This document shows, piece after piece, positions 3,013 through 49,012 of a stretch of 56,722 bases of DNA. Every line of letters starts with the position of its first letter. Position 1 is the first letter of the stretch. Position numbers and translations under genes: made by a program. The DNA comes from a virus (taxonomy: Duplodnaviria; Caudoviricetes), in the IMG/VR virus record IMGVR_UViG_3300042558_002627, positions 1 to 56,722 of that record. One strand, given 5' to 3'. The notes under the pieces were generated by a model that saw nothing but the letters and a program-made list of their open reading frames with translations, made no database searches and was not told where the DNA came from.

Positions 3013-3044
3013 TTAACAATAATAATAATTAAAACTTAAAAACA

Positions 3045-4322: not shown

Positions 4323-4335
4323 TTCTCCAACCCTC

Positions 4336-4387
4336 AGTAGCCTGCCACGAAATTTTGCTGTCGAGTGGTGGGCTACTATATTTTTTT
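4336..4387 (+). terminator. Intrinsic terminator
   Basis: AGTAGCCTGCCAC...GTGGTGGGCTACT 13-bp stem (two G-U pairs) followed by ATATTTTTTT. Confidence 0.7.
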
Positions 4388-7964: not shown

Positions 7965-7999
7965 TTCATTAAACTAATTAAAATTTTAAAAATAACATT

Positions 8000-10718: not shown

Positions 10719-12041
10719 ATGAGTACATCAATACAAATATCATCTGCAGGATTAACAAACGTTAACTATTCTAACGTTGCTTGGGTAGACGCTATTAATG
10801 GAAATGACCTTACAGGAGTAATAGGTGATTTTACAAAACCTTTTGCAACAGGAGCACAAGCAGTAAATACTGCAAATTCTTTTGGCTTTACTGCTACTAA
10901 TAGAGGATTAGTATATATTAGACGTGGGCAATACTCTGACCAAATTCAACTTTTAGCAAACATAGATTTTTACTGTGAACCAGGGACAGTTTGGACTTTA
11001 GGTGGATTTGTTGATACAGCAACAACAGGATCTGTAGGAATCTATGGTTCAGCAAAATTTGTATTAAATTCACGCCCTTTAAGAGTTGATTTTTCATCAA
11101 CTATTTATATGGAATTTGATGAAGTAAATCAAAATACTACCTTATCAATAGGAGCAATTGAAGTAGTGCCTTTAGCAGCTTACTCGGCAAATGTCACTAT
11201 AAATTGTAATAGAATATATTCTAATTGTAGAAATGCATATGCTATTACAATCCGAGGTAATGCTAATTTTGATCTAAACGTTACAAAAGAAATTAAAGGA
11301 CCTTACCAAGTTATTTTTATTAGACAAGCTGCTGATGGTACATTGTGGAACGGAACAGGCGTTATAACCTGTCCAAGAATCATTTGTGAAAATGGAGGCT
11401 ATGTTGGTAATTCAGCTGCTTTTAAAAATGCAGTATATTTCTTTAGTGTAAATTCAGCTACTAAATTAACTATTAATGGAGATATTATCAATGAAGCAAC
11501 TGGCTATGGTTATTCAATTCAAAGTTGTATTGTATCGACTGCTGCATCTTCACATTCTATTATAGTTAATGGATCTCTTATAGGTAATATTTCAGTTGGA
11601 TTAATTGCTGAAGGCAATGTAAGATTTGTTTTAAATGGAAATGCTTCTTCAACTGAACATGCTGCTAGATGCGGCGGAAGTGCAAATATTATTTTTAATA
11701 ATTCACGTTTAATAAAATATTCAAATTTTGGAGGAACTGCCGTAGTTGTTTTAAATGCAACTTGTATTGCTTATTTTAATAATTGTATGCTATATAATGG
11801 AGAACCATTTGGTCCTTCCATTGTTACTATAGCAAATACAACAGCAATTGGATATTTCTATAATTGTGTAGGATACTCAGTGGGAACTATTAATGCGCGA
11901 TTTGTTTGGACAGGAGGCGCTGCTGCCAAAATTGGAACAATAAATACACAATCAAATCAAATAAATGACCCAGCTTGTGTTGAACAATTCTCAGTTTCAG
12001 GATTTACACAAAATGCATTACTTGTCTTACCTAATTTTTAA
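10719..12041 (+). CDS. Putative tailspike / beta-helix receptor-binding protein
   Basis: N-terminal WVDAINGNDLTG...KPFAT...VYIRRGQY is typical of right-handed beta-helix starts; Asn/Ile/Cys-rich repetitive body. Confidence 0.6.
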   Translation: MSTSIQISSAGLTNVNYSNVAWVDAINGNDLTGVIGDFTKPFATGAQAVNTANSFGFTATNRGLVYIRRGQYSDQIQLLANIDFYCEPGTVWTLGGFVDTATTGSVGIYGSAKFVLNSRPLRVDFSSTIYMEFDEVNQNTTLSIGAIEVVPLAAYSANVTINCNRIYSNCRNAYAITIRGNANFDLNVTKEIKGPYQVIFIRQAADGTLWNGTGVITCPRIICENGGYVGNSAAFKNAVYFFSVNSATKLTINGDIINEATGYGYSIQSCIVSTAASSHSIIVNGSLIGNISVGLIAEGNVRFVLNGNASSTEHAARCGGSANIIFNNSRLIKYSNFGGTAVVVLNATCIAYFNNCMLYNGEPFGPSIVTIANTTAIGYFYNCVGYSVGTINARFVWTGGAAAKIGTINTQSNQINDPACVEQFSVSGFTQNALLVLPNF

Positions 12042-26875: not shown

Positions 26876-29617
26876 ATGCCAATTAGTCCATATAGTACGC
26901 CCATTCAATATGAATACAAGCCTCTAAATTTATCAGCTTTTGCTGCACCCCTTAGTGCAATGCAAGAAAAATTTGATATTGCTACAGAGGCTATTGATGC
27001 TGCGGATTTCAATTTAGCAAATCTTCCTTATGGGACAGATCCTGAAAGAGCAAAAGAATTGATTAAGACTGTTAAATCTAAAAGAGACGAGCTTGCTAAA
27101 AATTTGGCTGAAACGAAAAATTATAAGCAAGCAGCCTCTAAACTTCGTGAACTAAATACTCTTTGGCAGAAAGATCCAGAACTAAATGCTCTTCAAGCTA
27201 ATGCTAAGTTATGGGCAGAACGCGATAAAGCAGAAAGAGAAAGAATTGACAAGCCAGGAGGAATTACTCGTGACCAATATTTACAATGGAAAGATAGAGA
27301 GATTCGTAAATACAAAGAAAATAAAGGAGCTGCTTTTACTGCTACTGCTGCTGATAAACAAGGAACATACAATCAAATTACTGGACAAACTGGACGACTT
27401 GCTGATTTATCTAAAGATTTAGAAGAACTATCTTGGAAAGTAGCTAGTGCTGTTCCTGAAAATAAAATGGATGCTTTCCGTTCAGCAGGTATCGATCCTA
27501 CTACTCTTGATGCTAAATTTGTTAAGACTGTAGTTGAGGAAAAAGATGCTAAAAAAATAGCACAATTAACTTCTGATTACCTTCGTACTTTACCTAGATT
27601 TAGAGATTGGGCAACTGAAGTAGCAGATTATAACCATGATCAACTACAACAAAATCCTGAAGCATACAAACAAGTTGCTTCAGAATTAAATGATAAGTAT
27701 TTATCTAGTCTTAACTATCAAATATCAGCAATTGAAAAAGCTGCTAAGAAAGATAAAAATCTTTTAAAAGGTGCTGAGTATACAGACTTAATGGAAGAAA
27801 AAGCTAAAGCTGAACAAGCTAAACTTACTGGAGAATACGATGCTACTGCTACTAAAAATTTATACACCCATCAACATTTAAATAATGTTTATGACATGGG
27901 AGCTTTGGGTAAAGTTCTTGCGTATAAAAATGTTACGCATGATTATACTTTCAGAGACATGCCAAATGAAGGAGACGGTTCTGGAAGTGGTAGTGGTAAC
28001 GCTGCTACAGGAGATGGATTCTTTATACCAAATTCTGAAGAAAAATGGTCAATACCAGATTTAGGTAAAACAAAAATAAGTGCAGGAAAACAGTTATATG
28101 AAACTGTAAAGAACATTAATAAACTTGCTGCAGGTAATGTAAGATTAGCTATTTTAGGAAAACCAGGGACAACAGAGTATAAAAAATTAGTAAATAATCC
28201 AGATCAAATTAGAGCTAGACAAGAACAACTCTTTACTACATTAACTCAAACAGTAGCTAATGGAGGTAATTGGAAAAACTTTAAAAATGCAATTAATAAT
28301 AAAGGAATTGTTTTATCAGATAATTTAGCTAGAAGCCTTTGGAAAGAAATGACTACTCCAGATGCAGAAGGTGGAAATCAAAGTTTAACAGAGTATGCTA
28401 ATTATTTAAAAAATTCTGAAGAAGTTGCTAGTGTTTATAATACGGCAAATTCTACCTTAACTCAGATAAAATCTAAAGTAAAAGAAACAGAAGAATTTAA
28501 ATTATTCACAGCAGGATTAGAAGAATATACTCCAGCAGAAGCTATAATTTATGGAACAGGTATTGACGAAATGGGTAACGAAGATTACGGAGATCCTAAA
28601 TTGCAAAGATTATATAATCCAAAAAGTTATACAAAAGAGCAATTAGCAAAAGCAGGTTATACTGGTGGAAAAGTTTTAAGTCTAGGACAAATTGCAAAAT
28701 TACGAGGATATAAAAATGTTCAAGATGCTGTAAATAAAGGATATAATTTTGGAGAAGTATTAGTTAATGGAGTAGATTTAGAAACAGGCCAAGGAATATC
28801 AGCTGGATTAGGCGGACAAGCTGGTACTATTTCAGATATTCTAAACAGAAAAGTAAATCAAATTTATAATAATGATCTAACTAAAAATGAACAATCTTAT
28901 AGATTTGTTAATGATAAAAACTTAGATAAAGAAATGGCACAATATTTTTTAGGCGCTTCTGATTTAAGTTCTTTCTTACCTGCTTATAGTTCTAATTGGA
29001 AAAATGTTAATGGCTTCGATGAAGATGGAAAATTAGCTGCTGGTACAGTTTTAAACATCAGTGAGAATAGAAGTCCTAAAATAGTAATGCATGGTAATAG
29101 TATGTTCTTCGAAGTGCCTATTAAGTACGATAAAGATGGTAATGGAAGCGCGGATACTGAAGGAACTGTTACTATAAAACCTAAAGCTGGGACTAATATT
29201 AAAATAGGAGATTTGTTGTATAAATTAGATGCTGCTTCTAGTGGAGGTACTCAACTAAATAAGCAAACTAATGATATGATTAAAGCAGCAAGATTTGATA
29301 ATGCTTTTGCTGGAAATAATTTATCTCCTCAACTTATACAATCTGTTGGAGTAACTCCATTAGATCAGGGAGGAAAAAGAATAGAACTATATTCAATTCC
29401 TTTTGATGCTAATTCTAGATTATCAGTAGTAAAAGTTCAAGGTAAAGTAGACAATAATCCAGTATTGAAAATTGCAATATCAGATAATAGTGGTAAATTT
29501 ATTCGTTATGCTCCTAACGAAGAAACTGGAAAAGACTGGTATTATAATGCAGATTCTAACGAGGCCGCTTCTGCTGCTAAAGTATATTTAATGGGAGCAT
29601 TAAACCCAGGAAGATAA
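26876..29617 (+). CDS. Virion cargo/ejection protein 2
   Basis: 913 aa; N-terminal YKPLNL; helical; lies between cargo 1 and the virion RNAP genes. Confidence 0.55.
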   Translation: MPISPYSTPIQYEYKPLNLSAFAAPLSAMQEKFDIATEAIDAADFNLANLPYGTDPERAKELIKTVKSKRDELAKNLAETKNYKQAASKLRELNTLWQKDPELNALQANAKLWAERDKAERERIDKPGGITRDQYLQWKDREIRKYKENKGAAFTATAADKQGTYNQITGQTGRLADLSKDLEELSWKVASAVPENKMDAFRSAGIDPTTLDAKFVKTVVEEKDAKKIAQLTSDYLRTLPRFRDWATEVADYNHDQLQQNPEAYKQVASELNDKYLSSLNYQISAIEKAAKKDKNLLKGAEYTDLMEEKAKAEQAKLTGEYDATATKNLYTHQHLNNVYDMGALGKVLAYKNVTHDYTFRDMPNEGDGSGSGSGNAATGDGFFIPNSEEKWSIPDLGKTKISAGKQLYETVKNINKLAAGNVRLAILGKPGTTEYKKLVNNPDQIRARQEQLFTTLTQTVANGGNWKNFKNAINNKGIVLSDNLARSLWKEMTTPDAEGGNQSLTEYANYLKNSEEVASVYNTANSTLTQIKSKVKETEEFKLFTAGLEEYTPAEAIIYGTGIDEMGNEDYGDPKLQRLYNPKSYTKEQLAKAGYTGGKVLSLGQIAKLRGYKNVQDAVNKGYNFGEVLVNGVDLETGQGISAGLGGQAGTISDILNRKVNQIYNNDLTKNEQSYRFVNDKNLDKEMAQYFLGASDLSSFLPAYSSNWKNVNGFDEDGKLAAGTVLNISENRSPKIVMHGNSMFFEVPIKYDKDGNGSADTEGTVTIKPKAGTNIKIGDLLYKLDAASSGGTQLNKQTNDMIKAARFDNAFAGNNLSPQLIQSVGVTPLDQGGKRIELYSIPFDANSRLSVVKVQGKVDNNPVLKIAISDNSGKFIRYAPNEETGKDWYYNADSNEAASAAKVYLMGALNPGR

Positions 29618-32600: not shown

Positions 32601-35600
32601 CATCGCTGAGGTTCCTATTAAAGTAACTGATAAAGACGGTAATACAGTATTCTATGTACACGACAATGCATGGTATAGAGCAGAAAACTTAAATGCTACT
32701 GCTGAAGAAATTGTTGAAGATAAAGCTCGTAACTTTAAAATCCGCGAGACTATTGTCAAAAAAAATGAACCAGTTAAATCTAAAGTACAATACAAAAGCT
32801 TTGGTAAATTATTTAAAACTTTTGACGGAGAATCTCTTCCTGTTTCTATAACAATGCCTGATTCTAAGTTAATTTTAGCAGTCGGACGTGACGGTGCATT
32901 TGAATTACCTGGTAATGCTAACAAACTATTAAATGGCGGAACTATTTTAAATAGCCCAGTATCTGAAGGTAGATTATATGCTATCGTCAAAGTAGGCCCT
33001 AAAGATTACATGCCAATTCCTTTAGAAAGAAAACCTATTTCTAAAGAAGTTATTAATACAGTAATGTTTGCAATAGAAGCGCATTTGACTGGTGATCAAG
33101 AAAATCCTATAGTAAAAGCTATTAGAGAATCTTCATTAAGTTTAGACATTACTACTACTTCAGGTTTAGCAGAATATTTAAATCAATTTATTTACCTATT
33201 TCCTACTCAAGGACCTGCAGGTTTAGAAAATTATTTACTTCGTGGGGGAGGCCAAAATACATTAAAATCTAATATGCCTTTGATCAGTGTTACTGCAACA
33301 GGAATCGAATTCGGTCGTCCTGGTGTTAACATGGGATCTTATGTAGATAAGAACGGTAATAAAGTTACTAAGTGTGCTATTACAGTTTCTGCTAACTTTA
33401 AATCTAAAGGTGGGCAAGCTACTAATCAAGCAGGTTTAGATAAACTACGTGCACTATTAGAAGATCCTAGATATACTCCTCTTGCAAATGCAAGTAGAAA
33501 AGATCTAGCTAAAAACGCAGATTCAATAATTATTTTAGATGCAGAAGGAAATACTAATACAGTAAAATATCCAGACTTAGTAAAAAATTCTCATCAAACA
33601 AATATCTTATCGATAAATATTGGTACTGAGGAAGAACCTAAGTGGGCTTATACTATCCAGCCTACTATTCTTTTTGATACTGCATTTGCTGGTATAAAAC
33701 CTACTAAGAAAAAAGCAGCTGCTACTCCAAAGATTAATAAAGTTACTCCTGCACAAAAATCTTCTTTAAGATATAAAGGAGTAAACCCTACTGTAGATGT
33801 AATTGTTACTAAGATAATTAACGGTGAGCCTCATGTTTTAATTATCAAAAGAGGAGCCAATGCAAAATCTGAACCTAATAAATTAGCATTTCCTGGAGGA
33901 TTCCACGACACTACTGCAAAAGCAGGTAATAAATGGAAACCTGGTAAAGAGACTGCAGAAGAAGCAGCAATGCGAGAAGTTAAAGAAGAAACTGGTTTAG
34001 ATCTAGAAGGACTTCCTTTAGAACAAGTAGGAGTATTCGATGATAGAACTAGAGACCCTAGAAATTCTAACACTTCTTGGATATCTTCTACTGTATACAA
34101 AGTCACTATCCCTGAAGATTTTTCTGGATCTACTGAAGTATCTGGACAAGATGATGCTCAAGATGCTAGATGGATTCCTGTATCAGAATTAAGTGCTACA
34201 GATAAATCTGAATTTGGATTTGATCATGCTGATATTTTAGAAAGTGAAGGATTAATTTTTACAACTACTGACCTTGAAGCAGAAAAAAAATCTAAAGTAT
34301 CTACCCTAAGAGCAGAAGAGCAAGCAGAATTAACTAAGGCTATCCCTAACATAGATGAGTATAAGGTTGATGGTGAGATAGATAAGGAATCTATGCCAGC
34401 GGATGTTAGAGCTAAGTATAATAAAATTTATGACAAGTACGATAAATTAATAGCCCCATTACTTCCTAAAAAACCTACTGCTGAACAAGAAGTAGAAGAA
34501 CTTACAGGAGAAGCATTGATTGAGGCTTATGCCCAAGATATTGCAAAAGGAATTGAAGATAAAAGTCAAATTGAACAATACCTTGAAAATTTAAAAGAAG
34601 GATTAGTTCCTGAAGCAGATGCTGTAGATATGGGATTTAATTCTTTACCAGAAGCAATTGCCTCTTTTGAGAAAGCATTAGAAATTTTTAATAAGAATGA
34701 AGCTGACTCTAAAACTATTACTTTACCAAGTGGATTAAAAGTTACAGTAAATAAAAATACTAAAGACTCTAATCCAATAGGAGAAGATAGTGTTGATGAG
34801 TTAATGACTGCGCTAGATGAAGATCAATTAAAAGAGCAACGTGATGAAATAGATCAAATGCTTATTAGAGGATTAGATACACAAACTCAATCATCTTTAA
34901 TTGCTTATTTGTCTTCAGATATTATTCAAGCAACTCTTAGTGCTAAAGAAGTAGGCGGACTTAAAAGTGTAAAAGTTAAACCTATATTAGACAAGCATTT
35001 AGAATCATTAAAAGAATTATCTAAGTTTTATAAAGAACAAGGATTAGATAATAAAGCAGCACGTCTAGATGCAGTCATTGATCAATTCGATAAAGTTAGA
35101 AGATTAGTAAATCAAAACATGAGTCTTTTATCTACAGGAACTGTAAAAGAGGATATCGAATTAGATGCTAATGAAGATGCGGGAGGATTAGTACGCAACA
35201 ACTATACAGATGATTGGGCATTTACAGTGAATCCTAAATCTACTACTTCAGAAGATTTGAAAAAATTCTTCAGTATGATTCAAGCGCAAGATGAAAATGG
35301 GCCTATAGTTAACTTACTAGGACTCCCAGAAATTCTTCCGTATGATACTGTATATAATACTTTAAAAGGACTTTTATCAAACAAGCCTGCAGACTACGAC
35401 TTAATGATTAAGATTCTAGAATTAAATACAGAGAAATTCCCTTGGATTAACTCTGTAATAGATCTTTTAGAAAAAAGTAATACTCCTGATAAAATTAAAA
35501 ATGAGTTTGTTTCAGGAATGGTGGGCCATAATATTCACATGCAGTTTGTTATGTGGAGTAAAGATCGTAATGGAAACTACTCTTTACAAAAATGGTCTAG

Positions 35601-38277
35601 TAACTCTTCAGCAGTAGAAGAAAGACTACGTGCTATATGGAATTCTAACTTAAAAGGTGTAGGTACTAGAAGTAATTTGATTACAATAAACGAAGATGAT
35701 GAATACATTTTTGATAAGACTGTAGGTAATACACTAATTGCACAAGCAGCAGAATTTGCTAAAAACCCAGAAGCAGTAACTAACGAAGAATTAGCTAATT
35801 GGTTAGGACTTTTTGGAATTGTAATCAGTGATAAAACTTACGAAGATTTACGTAAAGGTAAGTTTAATAATAAGGGTCGTAAAAGTTGGAATGCATTATT
35901 CACTGGTGGAAAAGGTTTAGTTAAAGCATTAGCTAGAACTTTAGATGCAACACTACAAGGAGAAGTATCTTTTGATGATGCTAAGATTCTAACAGATTCT
36001 GTAGTAAAAGCATTGGCTAAATTAGAAGCTAGCAATAACCTAAGTGTTTATAGCAACTCTTTCCAAGCAGGTGGAAAAACTGTGTACTCTTACGGAAATA
36101 ATAATTTCCTTGTAAATAGAATGCGCGATCTTACAGCATACAATAATGAAACAGGGACATTTGTTAATCAAGATTTGATCGATAAATTACAAAATATTTC
36201 CTTTAGTAAAAATAGTAGTTGGCTTCAAGATCTAACCGAAGATGGGGCATTGGGTGATACAATGCGTAATACTTTCAGAATAAACTATTTATCCCTAGAA
36301 GCGCTTAAAAAAGCATTTACTAAATCTCAAGATAACAGAAAGCTAAATAACTTAACTGCTGCAGAGCACGAAGTAATTAAAATTGCTTTCTTCCAAAATG
36401 TTTCTGGAGATACTCTTAATGGAGAAGATAGAAGAGCTGTAGACTTCTTTTATCCTACTATGTCTGATAAGACTACTATGTTGACTATCAGCGCTTTAAC
36501 TCGACAATTAGTTTTAAGTGATGGAGAAATTTCGGATAAAAATCTAGAAACATTATACGATACAATTGTTGTTCCAGAAATAAACAGAATTCGAGATAAG
36601 CAATCTGATAACATTAAAGGATACGAACCTAACTATTTCTATTTCTTCCACAGCCTTAATTCTTTAATGGTTCCTATGGGAATAGACGTTAATGGAAATG
36701 TTACTGAGAAATCATTCCTAGATATTGTTAAAGATAAAGACAATACTTTATATTCTCCTGAAGTTAAGCAGGCAGTAATGGAAGAAATCAAAAGTATTTT
36801 TGATGGATTACTAGAAAAGAAATTAGAAGACTGGGGTAAACTAGGAATTGGATTAAAGCTTACAGATAAAAATAATAGAGTAACTGATAACTATACTTTC
36901 TTAGATAAGGAGTATATGTCTAAAGTAGCTAAAGTAGGTAAAGGAGTTGACAAGGTTAGTTACGCAGCAATGGATTATTTATTCAATAATTTAATTGCCA
37001 ATGCTGAAGCTTATAAATTATTTGCTGGAGATCCTGCTTTATATGCAAAGTTTAATAGCAAGAAAAGCTTAGAACAAAACCTAGAAGAAACTTTTACTAA
37101 TATTGGTAAACGTCTTGCTGGAGATATTGCACCAGGTATGGAATTAGCAGACAGTGCTAATAATAATTACTATCAAGTATTTATGCAGGATAAAAAGATT
37201 GATAGTAATAATGTAAAAGACACTGCTCAAAAAGAATACTTTAGTAAAATCATGAGTAAGTTTGGAGAAAACTACTCTGGAATAGAAGGTTCCGATGCTC
37301 AGGAATATACTACTTGGAAAGAGCACTTATATGTAATGCAGCAATTAGGTCGATTGACTAAAGCTCAATATGATAAAATTTATAAACAATTAGAAGGACA
37401 GTCTAAAGGAGATTTTAGAAAATCTAATATACTTTCTTATGATGATATAAATATTGTCATGCAGCCTTTAAAACCTGTATATGTAGGCAACACTGCTTCT
37501 ATAGAAGATAATGCAGACCGTAGAGTTTATATTAAGTCTTCTAGTTTTCCACTACTTCCCCAATTAACTTTAGGAATGCAAATAAATAAAATTCGTAAGG
37601 GATTAGAAGCATTTGAAGAAGAAATGTCGGGTACTACTAAAGATGGTAAACCTGCATTTGTTAGAGCTTCTTTTGGAACTGCAAATAAAGTAGGGGCTGT
37701 TAAAAATGCTGTAGAAGTTTTTGATAATAATGGTAATGTTGTTGATAACTTTAAAGTAAGCCTAGATAATACGCTATTACTTTCTAGATCAAACTTCAGA
37801 ATTCAGCAAGATGTTCCTTACAAACGTGAAAAAGATGCTGTAAATATTGGAACACAAGAACGTAAGCTATTATTTGTAAATACATTAGATCTAGAAATTG
37901 AACCAGGTGTTAAAGGTCAAGATTTAATGGATCTTTATAATCAAAACTATCAAGATTTATACGAATATGCTTACGAAGAGTTATCTAAGAAACTTGGTCT
38001 AGTTAAAGAAATAACTAGTACAAAAGACTTAACATCATTGTTAGCGATGCCATCTTCAGATATTTTTGAAAGAACTTCTGAATTAGAAAAGCAACTTAAA
38101 AGCGTTAGTCCTATTAAGAAAGCAGAACTGCAACAAGATTTTGCAGAGGAAATAGGGGATGATAACTTAGAAAGAGTTAACTTTATAAACAAAAATTTCG
38201 ACAATATAGTTGAAGCATTGATGTCATCAGACATGGCAATCTTCAAAGACGAAAATAATGAATTCAAAAAATGTTAA
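29671..38277 (+). CDS. Giant virion protein: N-terminal membrane/helical region, Nudix hydrolase domain, and N-terminal (beta-like) half of the virion RNA polymerase
   Basis: 2868 aa; Nudix box ETAEEAAMREVKEETGL (~33950-34000); crAss vRNAP-type motifs PTMSDK, LFAGDPALY, KRLAG, SDAQEYTT (~37291), QPLKPVYVG, YIKSSSFPL, RIQQDVP. Confidence 0.75.
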   Translation: MAKKQVPVVVPTSPRHDMIQKIVDQKVDKTLGFNQEVVDKLGVGESGEYSGLQKIYKQKNADIFDPYEDYVDRGTLHGGQFSMEELGKIRAENQSNWEQARHAVGRVAVNIVPQIIGGLSSMVDVPGYFSAEEAANNQLVNWAQDLKKEVDNDWFPIYEENPGQSMNLSDPAWWMSRGSGLVESIGSFAVTGMVGGKIASTVLGGVGKLTRGKDLARAVLGANKSQRLLGGAEALTNATMMNQAEATISATQVFNDTYKARLAQGWDAPKAKQAAAEAAATTMNINKINILLNLSSAAAFLKPIQGGSRNLVKLTSGLGKITELAKEGGQESLEELINLVAEKAGTAKGRGEKYTMKNALEDMGSMEGFEAAFLGALGGIGQKGIINATEYSKYGAGNTKDAEGNRISKVEYERGQYAKQQEVINELKEKGVNVTDVMKNFKDNLLFQEKLTEAEEKGDQAEVDKLKEELFENQAIKAFQSGTTEVLENLYRAEAERNPEEVGQDHIDRANDALVQLKQLESIYNNFEGYENVDEIFFNRANKSRADRNLKYVEGLKKESDFQLSKDLHSIAKKYSYERERPILIKENGEVVRTEIATDTIPLSYSMSNLDENQGHTEAEQKIYDKFLAEVKALPSYKNSTSYGETVDKMQNLVTTADQEFAEITSKKYQITFAEKKAKEAEKKAAFEAISRSTSMAEVEKLRDAFDDPMLKKAAENKLADLKKANDIAAKQKQTTFVVQTFNDKIKNATKDQLEQLRTEIEEAELSQNHKTDLNLALDKKIRALNGEETEEDLAEDAEEDNPLADVDSRTPEEIAAEVEKENASFDTTLPKDLPNPNTEKQDVEGEVGEAAVNLAQEDKTLVIGEDAEGNLIYSYDRSSEGYNRAAYLSKEFNQKEVLGIVYRSDIDNTVDNLELLDPDYLNAGAELNLQVDSEYAGEKYDPTSNTREKISWSMREIELQKQADAQGILLTSLPEYIAEVPIKVTDKDGNTVFYVHDNAWYRAENLNATAEEIVEDKARNFKIRETIVKKNEPVKSKVQYKSFGKLFKTFDGESLPVSITMPDSKLILAVGRDGAFELPGNANKLLNGGTILNSPVSEGRLYAIVKVGPKDYMPIPLERKPISKEVINTVMFAIEAHLTGDQENPIVKAIRESSLSLDITTTSGLAEYLNQFIYLFPTQGPAGLENYLLRGGGQNTLKSNMPLISVTATGIEFGRPGVNMGSYVDKNGNKVTKCAITVSANFKSKGGQATNQAGLDKLRALLEDPRYTPLANASRKDLAKNADSIIILDAEGNTNTVKYPDLVKNSHQTNILSINIGTEEEPKWAYTIQPTILFDTAFAGIKPTKKKAAATPKINKVTPAQKSSLRYKGVNPTVDVIVTKIINGEPHVLIIKRGANAKSEPNKLAFPGGFHDTTAKAGNKWKPGKETAEEAAMREVKEETGLDLEGLPLEQVGVFDDRTRDPRNSNTSWISSTVYKVTIPEDFSGSTEVSGQDDAQDARWIPVSELSATDKSEFGFDHADILESEGLIFTTTDLEAEKKSKVSTLRAEEQAELTKAIPNIDEYKVDGEIDKESMPADVRAKYNKIYDKYDKLIAPLLPKKPTAEQEVEELTGEALIEAYAQDIAKGIEDKSQIEQYLENLKEGLVPEADAVDMGFNSLPEAIASFEKALEIFNKNEADSKTITLPSGLKVTVNKNTKDSNPIGEDSVDELMTALDEDQLKEQRDEIDQMLIRGLDTQTQSSLIAYLSSDIIQATLSAKEVGGLKSVKVKPILDKHLESLKELSKFYKEQGLDNKAARLDAVIDQFDKVRRLVNQNMSLLSTGTVKEDIELDANEDAGGLVRNNYTDDWAFTVNPKSTTSEDLKKFFSMIQAQDENGPIVNLLGLPEILPYDTVYNTLKGLLSNKPADYDLMIKILELNTEKFPWINSVIDLLEKSNTPDKIKNEFVSGMVGHNIHMQFVMWSKDRNGNYSLQKWSSNSSAVEERLRAIWNSNLKGVGTRSNLITINEDDEYIFDKTVGNTLIAQAAEFAKNPEAVTNEELANWLGLFGIVISDKTYEDLRKGKFNNKGRKSWNALFTGGKGLVKALARTLDATLQGEVSFDDAKILTDSVVKALAKLEASNNLSVYSNSFQAGGKTVYSYGNNNFLVNRMRDLTAYNNETGTFVNQDLIDKLQNISFSKNSSWLQDLTEDGALGDTMRNTFRINYLSLEALKKAFTKSQDNRKLNNLTAAEHEVIKIAFFQNVSGDTLNGEDRRAVDFFYPTMSDKTTMLTISALTRQLVLSDGEISDKNLETLYDTIVVPEINRIRDKQSDNIKGYEPNYFYFFHSLNSLMVPMGIDVNGNVTEKSFLDIVKDKDNTLYSPEVKQAVMEEIKSIFDGLLEKKLEDWGKLGIGLKLTDKNNRVTDNYTFLDKEYMSKVAKVGKGVDKVSYAAMDYLFNNLIANAEAYKLFAGDPALYAKFNSKKSLEQNLEETFTNIGKRLAGDIAPGMELADSANNNYYQVFMQDKKIDSNNVKDTAQKEYFSKIMSKFGENYSGIEGSDAQEYTTWKEHLYVMQQLGRLTKAQYDKIYKQLEGQSKGDFRKSNILSYDDINIVMQPLKPVYVGNTASIEDNADRRVYIKSSSFPLLPQLTLGMQINKIRKGLEAFEEEMSGTTKDGKPAFVRASFGTANKVGAVKNAVEVFDNNGNVVDNFKVSLDNTLLLSRSNFRIQQDVPYKREKDAVNIGTQERKLLFVNTLDLEIEPGVKGQDLMDLYNQNYQDLYEYAYEELSKKLGLVKEITSTKDLTSLLAMPSSDIFERTSELEKQLKSVSPIKKAELQQDFAEEIGDDNLERVNFINKNFDNIVEALMSSDMAIFKDENNEFKKC

Positions 38278-38279
38278 TA

Positions 38280-38768
38280 ATGGAAAAATTACTTACAGAA
38301 AACGAGATTAAATTTCTCAATATGTTCGGTAAATTAGAGTTGACTGCGTCACATGTGTATCAGCACCTTACTAATCGAATGAAGACTTTAGGTTACTTCG
38401 GCGCAGAAAAATTCTTTTTATCAGAATCTTTAGACGAAAGAAAGCATTACAATACAATAGAACAATTTATGAACGACATGAATTGTGAGCTTTCTGTAGA
38501 GTCTTTAGACCCTGTAACTAGCTCTGTAGCTGGTATTGGAGACGCTTTAGATATGGCTTACAAAATGGAAGCGGATCTTTTAGCAGCTTATGAAAAAGTA
38601 GCCAATTCCGAAATATCAAGAAAAACGTTAATTTTGCTTCAAGACTTTATTATGATACAAGTATCAGCAGTAGGGGAATATGGAGATTTAATTAACCGTT
38701 TAAAACTTACTGATAACATGTTGCTGTTTGATGCAGATATGTTAGAAAGAAGTGAGAACGAAGGATAA
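38280..38768 (+). CDS. Ferritin-like (non-haem ferritin family) protein
   Basis: ELTASHVY...GYFGAEKFF..ESLDERKH...ALDMAYKME...LQDFIMIQ ferritin four-helix pattern; probable start ATG 38280 (TAATAATG). Confidence 0.75.
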   Translation: MEKLLTENEIKFLNMFGKLELTASHVYQHLTNRMKTLGYFGAEKFFLSESLDERKHYNTIEQFMNDMNCELSVESLDPVTSSVAGIGDALDMAYKMEADLLAAYEKVANSEISRKTLILLQDFIMIQVSAVGEYGDLINRLKLTDNMLLFDADMLERSENEG

Positions 38769-38782
38769 TAAAAAACAACAAC

Positions 38783-41700
38783 ATGTCAAATTGTAAGTAT
38801 TTTGTCAATGGTGATTGGGTAACTGAGAACCAATTAAAAGAGCTTTTGAATGCTGGGCTATTAGATAATTTAGTTTCTAATGGAACTGTAGAAGTAAAAG
38901 GCTTTAAAGTAGACAGCTCTAAGTTGCTTAAAGCAGAAACTACTAAAGTTACTAGTGATAATATTCCTGCAGTAACATTGGCAAACATATTAGCAAATGA
39001 GATTAAAAGCCGACAAGGCTATACTCTTAACATGTTGTCCGCATTAGAATTAACTAATCCTACTGCAGAAGAAAGAGCTAATGGGGTAGAACCAGATTTC
39101 AAAATTCCTTTATGGGCATCGCCGTATGCAAATAAATTTGAAAGTTTACTTACATCTTTAGTAAGTAACAAAATAGTTAAGCAAAAATTCCCAGGAAATT
39201 CTTACATCTTAGGTTCAGAAGAAGGGTTCCGAGTTAAAGAAGGGGACGAAGCAGCAGGAGAATTAGGAAAATCTAACATCGTATTTACTTCTAACTTTGA
39301 TCCAGAAAAAGGATTACAGCCAATGCGTTGGGATTTCGAAAATAAAAAGATTCTTCCTGCGCAAATAATGATTCCATTTAAATTCCGCGACGAATCAGGA
39401 GAAATTCTTTCTTTGAAAGATTTTACTACACTAGAAGAGGGAGGAAGAATGGTATTAGATACTACCAAAATTCCAGACAAATTACTTCAACTATTTGGCT
39501 TCCGTATTCCTACACAAGAGCGTAACTCTATGGCCGCTGTAGAAATAGTAGGCTTCTTACCTGAAGCATCAGGAGATCTTGTCTTAGCGCCAAGAGATTT
39601 TACTAAGCAAATGGGATCCGATTTTGACGTTGATAAATTGTACACATATATGTACAATCATTTCTACGATAATAAAACTGGGAAACTACATACCAACTTT
39701 GTTTCTGATAAAAAGAAAATCAAAAGTTTCATAGAAATTACAAAACAAAGTATTGAGGATATAAAAGAAGAATTTAAACTTTCTAAAGAGCAGAAGAAAA
39801 TTTTAAATGCTTACATCCAAGAGGCTAATGTTAGTTTAACAGATCAAGATTATTCAGAAAGACGTTCTAAAGGTGAGGAAACAGAATCTGAATTATCTAG
39901 AATGGCTGCAGAAATTTTAAATTTCTCACTTAAAGGAGAACTAAAAGAAAAGTTAGACTACAATATCAATCAACTATCGATATTAAGTAGATCTTACAAA
40001 GCTTCTCGACAAAATAATATCTTAGATATTCACCATAGAATTATGACCTCTTCTAATCCTGAGATCATATCTTCTATTATGGCCCTAGATTCCTTTGGAG
40101 AATTTGAAAAATTAGCTAAGGATATCAACACCTTAAGAAATACTGACGGCGCAATTCCAATTATTCTTTCTGACGTCTATCAAAGAACTAAATATATTAA
40201 TGCAACTGCAGGTAAAAATGGTGTAGGATCTTTCTCACTAGATTCTACGTTTAATGCAACTGCACAAGGTAAACAACTTACTATACAAAATTTATCTGCA
40301 GAAAATAAAGAATTATTATTTGGTACTGTTCAAGAACCTAGAACTCCTACAGCAGCAGAAATTTTAGAAGCTAATGACCCTATTGCTACTTTTGGAAATG
40401 TAGTTTCTAAAGGAGATTTATCTAATAAATATACTCTTCGTTCTCAAGCAATTATTAATCTTGCTAAAGCAGAAAAAAGAGAATTAACAGATAAAGAAAA
40501 AGAATCTTTAAAATACAAATCTACTATCATACGAGCTCTTCAATCAACGGCAGTGGATAATGAGAAAGCACAGATCCTTGATAAATTAAATATCAATGAT
40601 GAAACTTTTGATGCTATCCGTGCAATGGCCCTATTAGGGTTTGAAGAATCAGAAATAGTAGGATTAATAACTCAAGATATTATCTGGGAGTTTATTGATA
40701 AATTGAAAGACGCGCGATCTTCCTTGACTTCTTATAATGCAAATGCAAGTGCAGATATATTCCAAGAATTAATTGCTAAGTACGATCCTAGTAAATCCTA
40801 CGCCGCACTTGATGCTGATAGAATAGATTCTTATTCTGCTAAATCTGGAGTAGAGCTTATTGCTAATATTGGAAATAAAACTCTTGTGCCTCTTAAAGAA
40901 GGTACTACTCCTGATTTTCATCTAGAGCAACTAGCATTATTAGATAAATTCTTAAAGTTAACAGCTACAGGAAAAGACATCAAAGTATTGCAGTCTTCTA
41001 TTAATACTGAGTCTAGCGGTATTCCTAAATCATTATTGGAGACAAAAACTAAAGTAGAACAAATAGAACGTTTGCCTTACTTAAACATTTTCAATGCCGA
41101 TAAATTATTAGGTGAATACGAGGTAACAGGATTAAGTAATCCTACTACTATTAATGGATACGCTGCGTATTACGGAGCAATGTTTGCTAATAAAATATAC
41201 GATAAGTATTTCCCATATAAACAAACAGGGTTTAATGCGGTAGTAGGAGAGATTATGTCTCATACTCCAAAAGGAGATACTATAAGTTTACCTAAAAAGA
41301 CTACACTTCAGCAAGAGATTTTTGATCAAGTAAAATCTTATCTGTATTCGAATACTAATACTAATTTATTTGGAGATAATCCTGATATAGAAAGACATAG
41401 ATTATTCATTGATACTAAACAAAATAAAAGTTTAGCATCTATTTTAAATGAACTATCTAATACAACTTGGTTCCAAAAAAATGGATTCTTGAATAAACTT
41501 TCGTTTGACATCAATAAAAATGGTACTATTTCTAGAATTAACTTTGAAGCAGCAGCTGGAGAAAATCTAGATGAAAGAAATATCTATGATGGATTTAATT
41601 ACTTGCTTAGTAAAAACTTTGCAATTGGAAACTACAACGGTATAGATTATACTAGTCGTATTTTAGCACAAGAGCTTGTTGCAGCAGCTTTCTTAGAAGG

Positions 41701-44962: not shown

Positions 44963-47900
44963 ATGTCAATAGCATGTCCTAATAAGAATTCTAAAGAGTG
45001 GAAAACTCTTGTAAAGCAGACAGGAGAACAGTTAGCAAATCTGGCTTTTGTATCAAATGAATATAGAATTCCCGATGTAAAAAGTTCTACAGAAATTAAA
45101 AAGGCTATCAAGTTCCAATCTAAAGTGGAAAATTTTGCAGGAGTAGCTTCAAGACTAAGAAAGTATAACCAACAAAACGGTACTTCTCATTACTTTACTT
45201 TTAAAAATGTTTGGGGTAATACTTTTGAACTTACTTTAAAGTACAATTATTTACCAGTCAATTTAGAAAAACAAAGACAGAGAGAAGCGGCTAAAGGGGA
45301 CCCTTTATATGCTATTAACGATTTTGATGCACCTGCTTTTAATTACATGTACCCAGGAAGTAGTAGCCAGATTAGACCTAGCTCTAACATTGATGAATTA
45401 ATTCCTGGTGCAGAGACTCAAGTAATTGCTGTAGAAAAATTAAGAAAAGACAAAATAAATACAGCAATAATTAAGCAGCGTCAAGAACTAGCTAATGTAA
45501 AAGATGCTGTAGAAATGCGATCTATTCTCAATAAAATTGAGAGTTTAGTTAAAAGTTTAGAAGGGACTGAATCAATTAGAGGTGCTCAAGAACGGCTACT
45601 ATTAGCGGGTGAAATTAAAGCATTTGAAGAAGTAGAAATTTTTGGAAATTTGCAATTAAAAGAAATTGAGAAATTATTAAATAATCCTGCAATTAGCGCA
45701 GACGATGTTTATTATGCTCAACGTATTATAGATCTTTGGTTAAAAGCTGGAGATTTTTCTACAGACCCTCGTGAACATATTTTCTTAGATGAAGATGAGT
45801 TTAATACTAAGGAAATTCGTTCTAAGTTTAGAGCTCTTGCTGCTACAGCACAAGATCTTCAAAGTAAACTTATTCCTATTCGAGAAGAACATACTACAAA
45901 TTTTGTAAGACAATACACTGATGGCAAATTAACTCAAGAAGAAATCTTTAAGAATATTCGTGATGTCAATAAAGTTGCTGCTATGACCTTAAATTTAAGT
46001 CGTCACGGTGACGCAATGTTACAAGCAGGTTTTGCTGCGGTAGAGGCTGCTAATATTTCCGCACAGCAAGAAGCATCTGAAGTGTGGAAAGAACTAGATG
46101 AACTTACTACAAAATTCTTAAAAAAATCAGGGGGTAATTTTAATATCTTAAAGCAGTTGACTGAAGATGGAAAAGAAACAGGAAGAACTGTTACTCGTTT
46201 TTCTTCAGAATTTTTTGAAACACGTAATTTATTATTAAAAAGAGCCTTTAAAACTGTTGATGCAAAAACTAAAAAAGTTACTAAGAATGCTGAGGCAGTC
46301 AAAACTTTTTTTAATTGGACTAATACTAATACTATTTCTTTTGATCCTAGAATCTTAATAGAAGATAGTCTATTAGATAATAGTATTATGCCAGAAAGTT
46401 TCTTATACAAAAGAGTTACTTATGATGAAGGTAGTCGCCAAAAACATATTGAAGAATTAAAGAAGCATTTAGGAGAAAAAGGATATGAATTCTATATTGA
46501 ACGTGCAAAAGAAAAAATAGAACAATTTAAACTTAGACGTGATGCTGCTTATGAAAGTATGCATTCTAAAAGTGAATTATCTAAAGTCGAGCAAGATGCT
46601 TTATTTGAAAATTGGTTAAGAGAATATTCTCCTTATTGGTCTATGGATATGATGGAAAATCCTACTTCTCGACAAAAAGGAAAAGATTCTTTCTATTCTC
46701 CAAAAGGAATGCGTGAATACATTATTCAAGTTCCTAGAAAATTTACTGCTGAAGGAAATACAAAATGGTACGATAAGAACTACGCTAAGATTGAGGCAGA
46801 TGATGATTTATATGCGTACCATAATTATATGATGAAGACTTTAAATAGCCTTCGTTATATGTTGCCAGAGCAAAAAAGAGCTTTAATGGGAGTAGGTGTA
46901 TTGCCTACTATTCAAAAAAGTTTAATGGACACATTCCAAGAAAAAGGAATGATGATGGGTGTTATTCCTTTTTGGGATAAAATGAAGCAACTTCAAACTA
47001 CTACGGATTTAGCTACAACAGTTTATTCTGATGTAAATCCTTTAACAGGTAGTATTGAAAAGAACATTCAAATTCAATATGTAGAAGATAATCAAGCTAG
47101 AGTAAAAACTTTAGTACGTCAAATGCAAATTAAGCATGAGCAAGAGACAGGAAAACCTGCTACAAATGAGGATAATATTAGATTTACTAAAGAAACCAAA
47201 GATTTTTTATCAAAAGAAAAATCTTGGGATGTTACTAAAATCTTAAAAGCATACTCTTTAAATATTCTTGCATATAAACACAAGTCTTTTATCGAGCCTC
47301 AAATTAAATTACTTGAGCAGGAATTAAAAGCTCGTAAAGAAATAGTAACAAATAAAGCGGGTCAAGCTCAAGTAGATGAATACGGTAAACCTTTAGAAAG
47401 AGAGGGCTTAAATAATCTAAAATCTGCTTGGGATTTCTTTATGGATTCTACTTTTTATGGAGTAGGAGGTCGTAAAGTAGAAGGAGTTACTAAGACTAAA
47501 CTCTATACAGATGCCGAAAAAAAACGTAAAAAAGAGTTAGAAGCTCTTTTAGAAAAGGAAACTGACGAAGAAAGTAAACAATTTTTACAAGGACAAATAG
47601 ATTCTTTAGGAGGATTTAGAACAATAAGTGGTGTAGGTGATACAGCACTTAAATACATGACTCTTAAAGGATTAGGATGGAACTTTTTCTCAGCCTTTTC
47701 CAATATAGGATTTGGTACTATTTCCAATTTAATCCAAGCATCTGATGGTCGAGAATACTCAATGGCAGATATGCGAAGAGCATATATATTAACTTTAAAC
47801 TCAGTTGGAAGAAATTTAAGTTTTAATTACTTAGACGGAGTAAATAGTAATGCCTTAAAAATTAGAACATTAATGGATAAATGGGATTTACTACAAACTT

Positions 47901-49012
47901 CTAACAAGGAGTTGTACGACATGTCCCAAAAATCATCAATGTCTAAATTAAAAAGATTTGGGCCATTTAGTTTGCAAGAACGTTCTGAATATTTAAATAT
48001 TGCTCCCGTAATGATAGCAACTATGCTATCAAAAAAACCAGATAATTCTCCTCAGTTTCCTGCTATAGGTCCTGATGGAGAAGTAGTTACTATATGGGAT
48101 GCATATGATATTTCAACAGGAAAATTAAAAGAAGGTTTTACTTCTGAAGTAGATGAAGTCAAACTTGTGCAAAAAATTAGAAGAATAGTAGAAATGAATC
48201 ATGGGGATTACAATAATGCCCTACAAGTAAAATCTACTATTAGTGGAAGATTATTAAGTCAATTCCGTACATGGATGTTTGAAGGATTTGCTAATAGATT
48301 TCAAGCAGCAGATCCTGATTACGGATTAAGCTATGGATTAGATGAAACTTACATTCGAAAAGGACGTTATCGCAGTTACACTAAAGGCCAGTTACTTACT
48401 ACTGGTGCAGCAGTTGGAACTATGTTTTTACCAGGTGTTGGAACCGCTCTAGGAGCAGGAATCGGTTATCTGGGCGGTAAATTTTTTGGCATGCAGACTG
48501 ACGAAAGTGTTTTAGGGGATACTTTATATACTTTAAAACAATTAGCTCGCAAATTGATGTTCCAAAAAACTCAATTTGGGGATAAGTTTACAGCAGTTGA
48601 TGCCGCTAACATGCGCAAAAATATGACGGAGCTTTACTTAATGATGGGTCTTATGGGAATAGCTTTATTCCTTAAAGGATTAGCGGGAGACGATGATGAT
48701 GAAGAACAAGTTGTAACTAATTTCCTTCTTAATCAAACTATCCGACTTCAAACAGATATCGGGTTCTATACTAATCCATTAGAAGCAGAAAAATTAACTA
48801 AAACTGCTGTTCCAATGGCTGCATTAGTAGACGATGTTAGAACTCTTTTTGTAGATATTGGGGGGCATCTTAATGATGAAAAAGGTGACGAAGTATTTGA
48901 AAGCGGACCGTTCAAAGGAAACAGTAAATTCCTTACACATTTAGGAGAAGCAATTCCTGGAACATCACAAGGAATTCGATTATACCGTACAGGACAACAA
49001 GTTATGGACTAA
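44963..49012 (+). CDS. Third giant virion/ejection protein of the RNAP cluster
   Basis: 1349 aa; MSIACPNKNSKEWK start; HGDYN...GRLLSQFRTWM, KGRYRS and AANMRK motifs like terminal crAss cargo proteins; glycine-zipper segment. Confidence 0.65.
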   Translation: MSIACPNKNSKEWKTLVKQTGEQLANLAFVSNEYRIPDVKSSTEIKKAIKFQSKVENFAGVASRLRKYNQQNGTSHYFTFKNVWGNTFELTLKYNYLPVNLEKQRQREAAKGDPLYAINDFDAPAFNYMYPGSSSQIRPSSNIDELIPGAETQVIAVEKLRKDKINTAIIKQRQELANVKDAVEMRSILNKIESLVKSLEGTESIRGAQERLLLAGEIKAFEEVEIFGNLQLKEIEKLLNNPAISADDVYYAQRIIDLWLKAGDFSTDPREHIFLDEDEFNTKEIRSKFRALAATAQDLQSKLIPIREEHTTNFVRQYTDGKLTQEEIFKNIRDVNKVAAMTLNLSRHGDAMLQAGFAAVEAANISAQQEASEVWKELDELTTKFLKKSGGNFNILKQLTEDGKETGRTVTRFSSEFFETRNLLLKRAFKTVDAKTKKVTKNAEAVKTFFNWTNTNTISFDPRILIEDSLLDNSIMPESFLYKRVTYDEGSRQKHIEELKKHLGEKGYEFYIERAKEKIEQFKLRRDAAYESMHSKSELSKVEQDALFENWLREYSPYWSMDMMENPTSRQKGKDSFYSPKGMREYIIQVPRKFTAEGNTKWYDKNYAKIEADDDLYAYHNYMMKTLNSLRYMLPEQKRALMGVGVLPTIQKSLMDTFQEKGMMMGVIPFWDKMKQLQTTTDLATTVYSDVNPLTGSIEKNIQIQYVEDNQARVKTLVRQMQIKHEQETGKPATNEDNIRFTKETKDFLSKEKSWDVTKILKAYSLNILAYKHKSFIEPQIKLLEQELKARKEIVTNKAGQAQVDEYGKPLEREGLNNLKSAWDFFMDSTFYGVGGRKVEGVTKTKLYTDAEKKRKKELEALLEKETDEESKQFLQGQIDSLGGFRTISGVGDTALKYMTLKGLGWNFFSAFSNIGFGTISNLIQASDGREYSMADMRRAYILTLNSVGRNLSFNYLDGVNSNALKIRTLMDKWDLLQTSNKELYDMSQKSSMSKLKRFGPFSLQERSEYLNIAPVMIATMLSKKPDNSPQFPAIGPDGEVVTIWDAYDISTGKLKEGFTSEVDEVKLVQKIRRIVEMNHGDYNNALQVKSTISGRLLSQFRTWMFEGFANRFQAADPDYGLSYGLDETYIRKGRYRSYTKGQLLTTGAAVGTMFLPGVGTALGAGIGYLGGKFFGMQTDESVLGDTLYTLKQLARKLMFQKTQFGDKFTAVDAANMRKNMTELYLMMGLMGIALFLKGLAGDDDDEEQVVTNFLLNQTIRLQTDIGFYTNPLEAEKLTKTAVPMAALVDDVRTLFVDIGGHLNDEKGDEVFESGPFKGNSKFLTHLGEAIPGTSQGIRLYRTGQQVMD

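Follow-up and report, generated by a model that had tools for sequence, protein, structure and literature searches.

What holds together an RNA polymerase whose core is cut in two by a ferritin-family gene? The question is raised by a 56,722-nucleotide (nt) stretch of viral DNA, IMG/VR record IMGVR_UViG_3300042558_002627, positions 1-56,722 (Caudoviricetes), which is known here from its sequence alone and is called the window. The phage is a member of an uncultured crAss-like lineage whose closest cultured relative is Flavobacterium phage FpV4. Four big genes stand in tandem on the + strand: 26876-29617 (913 amino acids, aa), P1 (29671-38277, 2868 aa), P2 (38783-44956, 2057 aa) and the gene for the next giant protein (44963-49012, 1349 aa). 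P1 joins an upstream giant virion protein to the N-terminal part of a virion RNA polymerase, with the first double-psi barrel region; P2, whose first residues are MSNCKYFVNGDW, carries the second barrel; the ferritin-family open reading frame (ORF) lies between them. An earlier note on this DNA had proposed that a cassette consisting of a C-terminal dock, a stop, a passenger gene and an N-terminal dock broke the polymerase while keeping its halves associated, and thereby created a site for inserting genes. The polymerase is indeed split, at a position that can be given exactly, and the pieces added at the break are lacking in unsplit relatives. These pieces, to judge from their distribution, are a pre-existing gene-boundary module rather than a product of the break, and the cassette that they frame probably re-links the polymerase halves.

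The core motifs lie on either side of the ferritin gene, at the places where the earlier note had put them. P1 has SDAQEY at residue 2541, QPLKP at 2598, RIQQDVP at 2710 and GTQERKL at 2727, and the segment 2541-2778 (37291-38004, + strand), which ends ...KKLGLV, is the last part of P1 that matches unsplit polymerases; its alignment to gp66, the virion polymerase of phage phi14:2, reaches about residue 1167. The catalytic segment of the second barrel (39497-39634, + strand) runs from GFRIPTQ (P2 239-245) to the metal-binding motif DFDVD (P2 280-284) and aligns to gp66 1308-1373, where DFDID begins at 1361. The gp66 preprint describes both barrels on one chain, joined by a Connector at 1095-1238, with the motif at 1361-1365, and gives the rule for the family as a catalytic DFDxD with Ile or Val in fourth place (bioRxiv 10.1101/2020.03.07.982082). 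The DFDVD of P2, with Val in fourth place, follows this rule. A MAFFT alignment puts the break between gp66 SELG (from 1164) and KRKLYDML (from 1176), near gp66 1168-1175; given the published limits of the Connector, the cut is therefore inside it, between the two barrels. P2 accordingly reads, in order, as a leader, the C-terminal half of the Connector, the second barrel with the catalytic motif, the polymerase remainder to about residue 1431 and a Dda-like superfamily 1 (SF1) helicase. The single polypeptide that is characteristic of the gp66 family is not found here, where the Connector is interrupted by tandem stops, the ferritin gene and the start of P2.

Both halves match one and the same profile of single giant proteins, phrog_16227, which is annotated as a virion structural protein: P1 2533-2778 corresponds to profile positions 2748-2991 and P2 65-1431 to positions 3005-4337. 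Against the unsplit gp32 of FpV4 (4287 aa), the P1 alignment ends at residue 2777 (gp32 2884) and the P2 alignment begins at residue 66 (gp32 2900), so that gp32 bridges the break with 15 residues where the window has 91 and 65 residues plus a gene. The link to gp66 was obtained by BLASTP (P1 with gp66 788-1127, E 4e-17; P2 227-292 with gp66 1308-1373, E 3e-13) and, on the P1 side only, by tblastn of the P1 C-terminus against phi14:2 (E 2e-8). In addition a profile of related proteins from other contigs (class B, described below) spans gp66 791-1382 at 3.8e-43, which ties both halves to gp66. A phmmer search of the PDB with whole P1 and P2 returned NUDIX and helicase relatives only, without gp66, and a DNA search of a phage collection with 36500-41000 gave no match.

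A search among longer proteins gave 409 relatives with lengths of 3601-5000 aa and E <=1e-10, of which the best 120 were used; among these the identity to the window proteins reaches 59%. Fifteen unsplit comparators were aligned across the break: FpV4, phi14:2, Kehishuvirus, two class B proteins and the 10 closest among the best 120 of 409. All fifteen have a short loop at the break site. The 59% identical protein, P0098, reads ...KLGLV-DGQST-IPA..., whereas the window has 90 residues more after the KKLGLV of P1 and about 60 residues before the IPAV of P2. The distance from QQDxP to DFDxD is 436 residues in the window versus 261-335 in the 12 unsplit comparators having QQDxP (279-335 in the 10 closest, 305 in FpV4 and 261 in gp66). 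The extra residues are a tail at the C-terminus of P1 (residues 2779-2868; 38005-38274, + strand), ending ...NNEFKKC, and a leader at the N-terminus of P2 (residues 1-59; 38783-38959, + strand). Neither has a counterpart in unsplit relatives. The tail has a conserved core at residues 2834-2868 (38170-38274, + strand), ERVNFINKNFDNIVEAL...EFKKC, with an invariant Cys in last place, and the leader has one at P2 residues 1-32 (+ strand), MSNCKYFVNGDWVTENQLKELLNAGLLDNL, with an invariant Cys at position 4. The earlier note had called these ends extra, and had named collinear alignment of the tails with unsplit polymerases, or a break at a common ancestral boundary, as what would speak against its reading. 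Neither is found, because the unsplit relatives bridge the break with a short loop: tail and leader align with none of the 15 comparators, and the site is unbroken in the close relatives, in Kehishuvirus and in the two class B proteins alike.

The window enzyme thus resembles phi14:2 gp66 and FpV4 gp32 in its homology over both barrel regions, in its DFDxD motif (V or I in fourth place), in its neighbourhood of giant virion genes and in its Cys-tipped ends. It differs from gp66 in that the chain is cut inside the Connector, with about 150 residues added at the new ends and a ferritin gene between them, and in that it is fused upstream to a gp67-like protein and downstream to an SF1 helicase. 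With one double-psi barrel on each chain and the active site at their interface, the two halves also resemble the beta and beta-prime subunits of cellular polymerases. Those, however, are ancient fixed subunits without docking tails, whereas the split in the window is a recent secondary one, nested among unsplit relatives.

The tail, the ferritin gene and the leader are not confined to this phage. A query with the ferritin found 13 IMG/VR contigs, and in 13/13 the order is giant ORF, ferritin, giant ORF. TAA ends both the P1 counterpart and the ferritin in all 13 relatives, with gaps of -1 to 11 nt before the ferritin and 7-16 nt after it. A census by alignment of the leader gave 24 loci, in which two classes, A and B, were told apart by alignment of the ends; class C was found by a further search with leader-bearing proteins lacking the polymerase motif. 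One partial locus without an upstream region (L031) was excluded. The resulting set of tail-leader boundaries comprises 39 contigs: 15 of class A (the window and 14 others), 11 of class B and 13 of class C. The arrangement is not due to chance or to an assembly error, since 14 other IMG/VR contigs have it too.

In class A the cut is in the Connector, and a ferritin and a Cys-ended tail are present in all 15 contigs. In 13/14 contigs the downstream protein reaches DFDxD after 266-280 residues (280 in the window); the remaining locus, L044, is incomplete. In class B the tail and leader flank a different boundary, about 1400-2400 residues upstream of the polymerase core and 1858-2243 residues upstream of DFDxD, with a tail such as ...IVDKNFEDIAIQLANSKDERFFNENNEFKKCK and a leader of the form MAC[KQ]YWY..W..E.EFK..L..GL. 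The polymerase core of class B is unsplit: by BLASTP only 23 residues separate the stretch that matches P1 from the one that matches P2. The class B profile has P1 1714-2817 at positions 829-1889, P2 4-57 at 3-56 and P2 64-311 at 1861-2068; the leader is thus shifted relative to the body of the protein. A ferritin is present in 7/11 class B contigs. The other four, L047-L050, are near-identical and have only a 35-nt spacer (about 7959-7995) between ...IGEKQC and MACKYWY, the sole ferritin-free form of this type of boundary that was found.

The 13 contigs of class C have, in 13/13, a protein of 1316-1842 aa, a ferritin and then a protein beginning MAKPC.YQLPG.D.WMSE.EFK..., two of the loci being incomplete. 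The one cysteine of the upstream protein is last or next to last. The class C neighbours contain no DFDxD and have no other match to the window proteins or to the class B profile, and no relatives of the class C protein P0057 were found in viral contigs. These contigs (L032 and L057-L068, 21-65 kb) form a separate phage group, in which several small proteins with 14-19 Cys are encoded just downstream of the giant pair.

The position of the leader was examined on a larger scale by matching its profile to 1.84 billion representative proteins. Of the 94 protein clusters matched, 91 have the match starting within their first 12 residues; the three exceptions are one repeat protein and two short unrelated proteins, and in none of the 94 is the leader internal to a giant protein. 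The matches include 14 class A-type clusters, 15 class B-type clusters and 26 long proteins without the motif. Hidden Markov models (HMMs) of tail and leader found no further copy in P1, P2, FpV4 gp32 or the phi14:2 proteins. A fused tail-leader remnant suspected by eye in P1 at about 1630-1720 was rejected, as the HMMs match the true ends only.

Tail, ferritin and leader are thus homologous at three different boundaries. The search for the terminal segments at other split points, which the earlier note had called for, turned up the unit of tail, stop, ferritin, start and leader at two boundaries besides that of the window. The idea of a cassette holds in so far as the unit recurs. The part of it in which the end-pieces arose with the break does not: the tail and leader appear to pre-exist the break, because the same module serves other boundaries, and does so even without a passenger in four contigs.

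The most conserved feature of both ends, passed over in the earlier note, is a terminal cysteine, and such cysteines mark every boundary in the block. P1 has cysteines only at 1235 and 2868, its last residue, in 2868 aa; P2 has them only at 4 and 2055 in 2057 aa. P1 Cys2868 faces P2 Cys4, and P2 Cys2055 (...LICGK) faces Cys5, the only cysteine of the next giant protein, which starts MSIAC; this second boundary has no passenger gene. The same holds in phi14:2, where gp67 has Cys1797 only (its last residue), gp66 has Cys3 and Cys2179 only, and gp65 has Cys3 only; FpV4 gp32 has a single cysteine, 4286. In all, 13/13 boundaries from 8 phages fit the pattern of a C-terminal Cys facing M-x(1-3)-C. 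The C-terminal Cys is at or next to the end in 12/13 and about 9 residues from it in Kehishuvirus; cr271_1 and cr110_1 keep the facing pair and have internal cysteines too. Along the chain, the first protein has a C-terminal Cys only, the middle ones have a Cys at both ends and the last has an N-terminal Cys only.

Larger samples agree. Among unsplit homologues (the best 120 of 409), a Cys is found in the last 5 residues in 99/120, where in 63/120 it is the only one; 13/120 have none. Cysteine is rare in these 120 proteins, with a median of 1 and 0.04% overall. Among leader proteins of at least 1000 aa, 54/54 have a Cys within the first 6 residues, and 26/28 of those with the polymerase motif have one in the last 5 residues. 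The giant proteins, in short, place their few cysteines almost only at junctions. The boundaries between giant cargo genes themselves differ by clade, Kehishuvirus, phi14:2 and FpV4 being divided differently from class B, and the cysteine pair is kept at each. In class B coordinates the Kehishuvirus polymerase begins at about position 700-900, and in FpV4 two of the proteins are fused.

A quick tree of the polymerase core was built from 39 rows: 12 of the 15 class A sequences, 6 of class B and 21 unsplit ones (18 of them from the best 120 of 409). Class B forms one clade (support 100) beside Kehishuvirus and phi14:2. Class A falls in a different clade (99), among the unsplit proteins P0098-P0108, and requires three state changes, at least two of which are forced by well-supported branches. 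P0122 and P0120 are unreliable long branches on this tree. The nesting of class A among unsplit proteins, with multiple state changes, indicates that the split is derived and has been through more than one gain or loss. A short target duplication at the break (DLTSLL versus TLANIL) was considered and found unsupported, there being no DNA repeat.

The middle gene (38280-38768, + strand) encodes 162 aa from a MEKLL start that is kept in relatives; an in-frame ATG is also present at 38271 (165 aa). P1 stops upstream of it in a tandem TAA TAA (38275-38280, + strand), the second TAA sharing one base with the ferritin ATG. The ferritin ORF also ends in TAA TAA, followed by a 14-nt spacer before the P2 start. 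PF00210 matches residues 14-146 of the 165 with 40.9 bits (cut-off 24.5), and 25 PDB ferritin sequences match the ORF with E values of 7.6e-6 to 1e-3; it has no PHROG match. E20, Y27, E53, H56, E97 and E133 are invariant in 14/14 sequences, and their spacing is one that we take to match the di-iron (ferroxidase) ligands of bacterial ferritins. An 18-nt inverted repeat, 83% complementary, lies at 38280-38297 and 38792-38809, that is at the ferritin start and the P2 start, and may be due to chance in this AT-rich DNA.

The ferritin has a history of its own. The window protein is 85-88% identical to those of two class B loci, L005 and L006, and 64% identical to that of the nearest class A relative. 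The DNA identity between the window and L005 is about 0.4 outside and 0.73-0.95 over the ferritin ORF (38274-38753; one 60-nt bin is at 0.68). The tract of high identity begins and ends with the ORF, and tail and leader are about 40% identical; identity to class A L008, on the other hand, peaks in the tail and leader. Because the identity to L005 is confined to the ORF, the ferritin has been exchanged on its own between these phages. On a ferritin tree of 33 rows class C forms one clade, and class A sequences are interspersed with those of class B on short branches, an intermixing that well-supported branches do not force. The ferritin is the sole passenger seen, in 35/39 contigs, and the other four carry none. 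On this comparison it would be a common passenger of the spacer in the tail-leader boundary, one that can be exchanged by itself; the broader suggestion of a site for inserting genes found no backing.

How, then, might the two halves be held together? The tail is predicted to form three helices (predicted local distance difference test, pLDDT, 73.6) and the leader a beta-hairpin followed by two helices (pLDDT 70.5). A complex of the two computed with ESMFold2 scored 0.43, a result graded as 'weak support', while the best of three controls scored 0.02; at least 84% of the contacts were shared between runs and the partner pLDDT was at least 66. In the calibration of this tool the 'weak support' mark was reached by 116/157 solved complexes and by 2/215 mismatched pairs, and at scores <=0.60 by 18/157 solved complexes and both of the passing mismatches. 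A structural precedent comes from cyanophage A4, where cryo-electron microscopy (cryo-EM) is described as showing the C-terminal helix of gp27 inserted in gp26 and fixed by a Cys1715-Cys5 disulfide (PMC12002296). For crassvirus particles, the published text on crAss001 reports that the portal-vertex protein gp57 and tail proteins contain structural disulfides, and suggests that the polymerase-associated proteins cross the tail partly unfolded (PMC10172136). From the predicted complex, the A4 disulfide, and the crassvirus disulfides and partly unfolded passage, we infer docking of the tail on the leader and a disulfide between their terminal cysteines.

The reading that we favour, and hold to be likely, is that the polymerase was cut in a surface loop of its Connector by a boundary cassette whose ends dock on each other, form a disulfide and so re-link the halves. 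The cut would have been the acquisition of the cassette: a Cys-ended helical tail, a stop, a ferritin, a start and a leader made of M-x-C, a beta-hairpin and helices. With the tail docked on the leader and a bond between the two terminal cysteines in the particle, P1, P2 and the next protein would move as one string, comparable to an uncut chain that has one loop more. The linked proteins would be freed when the bond is reduced in the cytoplasm of the host, and the freed halves would work like beta and beta-prime, with one barrel each. The earlier idea that docks keep the halves associated is thus retained in a tentative form, with the computed complex as its 'weak support'.

Several points weigh against this reading. 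By the calibration of the tool, a score in the band of 0.43 is wrong in more cases than it is right, unless the pairing was likely on prior grounds, and both the binding of tail to leader and the disulfide are put forward from modelling and from analogy. The barrels of cellular polymerases associate without such tails, which may therefore be unneeded for association. Tail and leader are also less constrained than the adjoining core, with uncorrected ratios of nonsynonymous to synonymous differences (pN/pS) of 0.56-0.61 versus 0.34-0.43. The class A history, with its two to three state changes on a quick tree, would fit repeated gain or repeated loss alike. No mobility gene, flanking repeat or target duplication that could explain movement of the cassette was found. 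A ferritin at 35/39 boundaries is more than would be expected of a neutral passenger, and the proposed mechanism assigns it no necessary role. As to the identification of the enzyme, a profile of 11 class A P2 N-termini gave no PDB match, and the same profile run locally matched FpV4, Kehishuvirus and class B proteins and missed gp66. The link to gp66 comes from pairwise BLASTP, the P1-side tblastn and the class B profile.

One alternative is that a gene boundary has shifted and nothing docks: the halves would meet through the barrel interface, and the tail, leader and cysteines would be signals of each protein by itself, for capsid targeting, ordered ejection or protease recognition. Cellular polymerases hold their barrels on separate chains without such tails (stated in the gp66 preprint, bioRxiv 10.1101/2020.03.07.982082); the leader heads very different proteins in classes A, B and C, as would be expected of a generic signal; and the predicted tail-leader complex is weakly supported. 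A signal belonging to single proteins does not, however, explain why tail and leader are always a facing pair at one boundary (39/39 contigs), or why the cysteines of first, middle and last proteins are distributed as pairing demands, and the A4 structure, as reported, shows such a pair disulfide-bonded (PMC12002296). We regard this alternative as unlikely. Still less likely, in our judgement, is that the ferritin is itself part of the mechanism, either as an oligomeric hub for tail and leader or as a co-packaged protein, or as an oxidant source, through its iron-oxidising chemistry, that closes the disulfide in a reducing or anoxic host. Its place exactly in the spacer at 35/39 tail-leader boundaries in three protein contexts, its putative di-iron residues (invariant in 14/14) and the retention of the gene even when it is swapped between lineages would be accounted for in this way. 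But four class B contigs keep tail, leader and both cysteines without it, and no ferritin is found at the Cys-tipped boundaries of phi14:2, FpV4, Kehishuvirus, cr271_1 and cr110_1, or at that between P2 and the next protein in the window.

The two ORFs might also be rejoined into a single chain when they are expressed, whether through a self-splicing intron or a split intein or through ribosomal bypass or recoding of the stop. Gut crAss-like groups are described as having frequent introns, inteins and recoding, and variable boundaries of the polymerase genes (PMC7886860), yet the locus argues against each of these readings, and they were rejected. P1 ends in a tandem TAA TAA, and TAA ends both P1 and the ferritin in the 13/13 relatives checked. 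About 500 nt, holding a conserved gene, would have to be skipped. An Rfam search of 37400-39400 at a permissive threshold gave no intron match above chance (the best, E 0.066, was a microRNA family), and neither P1 nor P2 has a Pfam match to a Hint or intein domain. The tail begins VKEIT, and Ile comes after the ...SDN at the end of the leader, so that the nucleophiles of an intein are missing, and the cysteines stand at the outer ends, not at the inner ends as a split intein would need. The tail and leader evolve as coding sequence, differences among 11 class A sequences falling at codon position 3 more than 1 and at 1 more than 2. The leader, finally, is N-terminal in 91/94 clusters and never inside a giant protein. 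Rejoining is accordingly very improbable, and the cassette that docks and re-links the halves is the reading carried forward here.

A wider form of this reading, which joins several further claims and is doubtful as a whole, treats tail and leader as a transferable kit. Any giant injected protein could then be cut in a surface loop and yet enter the particle and the host as a single string held by disulfides. In the reducing cytoplasm of the host this string would separate into subunits able to work. The ferritin would be active, supplying an iron-based oxidation that closes the terminal disulfides in the cell, or would be packed as cargo. The kit would have moved between unrelated phage lineages, and would have made two subunits out of a single-chain polymerase, repeating the relation of beta to beta-prime.

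Two known systems come near to the proposed arrangement. In Aeromonas phage Aeh1 the nrdA gene is described as cut by the endonuclease gene mobE, with insertion-derived C- and N-terminal tails that are essential for activity (PMC3045599). There too, according to this account, the gene of an essential enzyme is interrupted by another gene, tails missing from unsplit homologues stand at the new ends, and it is proposed that these tails bring the fragments together with no splicing of RNA or protein. The passenger in the window differs in being a ferritin and not a homing endonuclease, and the tails differ in being a conserved family with terminal Cys, found at no fewer than three boundaries and in 94 clusters, whereas those of Aeh1 are given as unique to the insertion. 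The gp27-gp26 pair of A4 shares the proposed geometry, a C-terminal helix docking on the next protein with a Cys near the C-terminus bonded to Cys5. In A4, as it is described, this is a single link between ordinary ejection proteins and the bond was seen by cryo-EM, whereas in the window the link would join halves of an enzyme core and is inferred; the likeness is one of described geometry.

A literature search turned up no account of the ferritin cassette, and none of the terminal cysteines. The words cysteine and disulfide are absent from the gp66 preprint (bioRxiv 10.1101/2020.03.07.982082); the accessible text of the crAss001 atlas mentions disulfides for gp57 and tail proteins only (PMC10172136); and that of the paper on gut crAss-like phages, which covers variable polymerase boundaries, introns and inteins, has no such arrangement (PMC7886860). 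The locus presents a recent natural conversion of a two-barrel RNA polymerase from a single chain to two chains, cut exactly between the barrels. Because close unsplit relatives exist, matched pairs are at hand for testing how single-chain and multisubunit polymerases are related, a question of long debate. A small conserved pair of Cys-tipped ends marks the boundaries of injected giant proteins and is portable between sites and lineages. If these ends bind and bond, they would explain how crAss-like phages keep a very large cargo ordered in packing and injection, and would provide a compact natural tag pair with which large proteins could be split and re-linked. The phage ferritin, so far unexplained, gains a definite genomic address and testable roles.

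The remainder of the window encodes the major head protein and other virion proteins. A scan of the + strand for promoters and terminators, ill-suited to this host group, gave hits at chance level. The SF1 helicase (Dda/RecD-like) occupies P2 1440-1978 (43100-44716) and is fused C-terminally to the polymerase half. Such a fusion is common to many unsplit relatives, Pfam AAA_30 and UvrD_C_2 being matched on P0099, P0105, P0107 and others. Within P1, residues 1375-1511 (33793-34203) form a NUDIX hydrolase domain (Pfam 8.9e-14; PDB 3i9x, 1.1e-10), which might target nucleotides or RNA caps in the host after injection. Two proteins of the virion region, at 4413-5240 (12 Cys in 275 aa) and 10719-12041 (11 in 440 aa), are cysteine-rich, unlike the giant cargo proteins.

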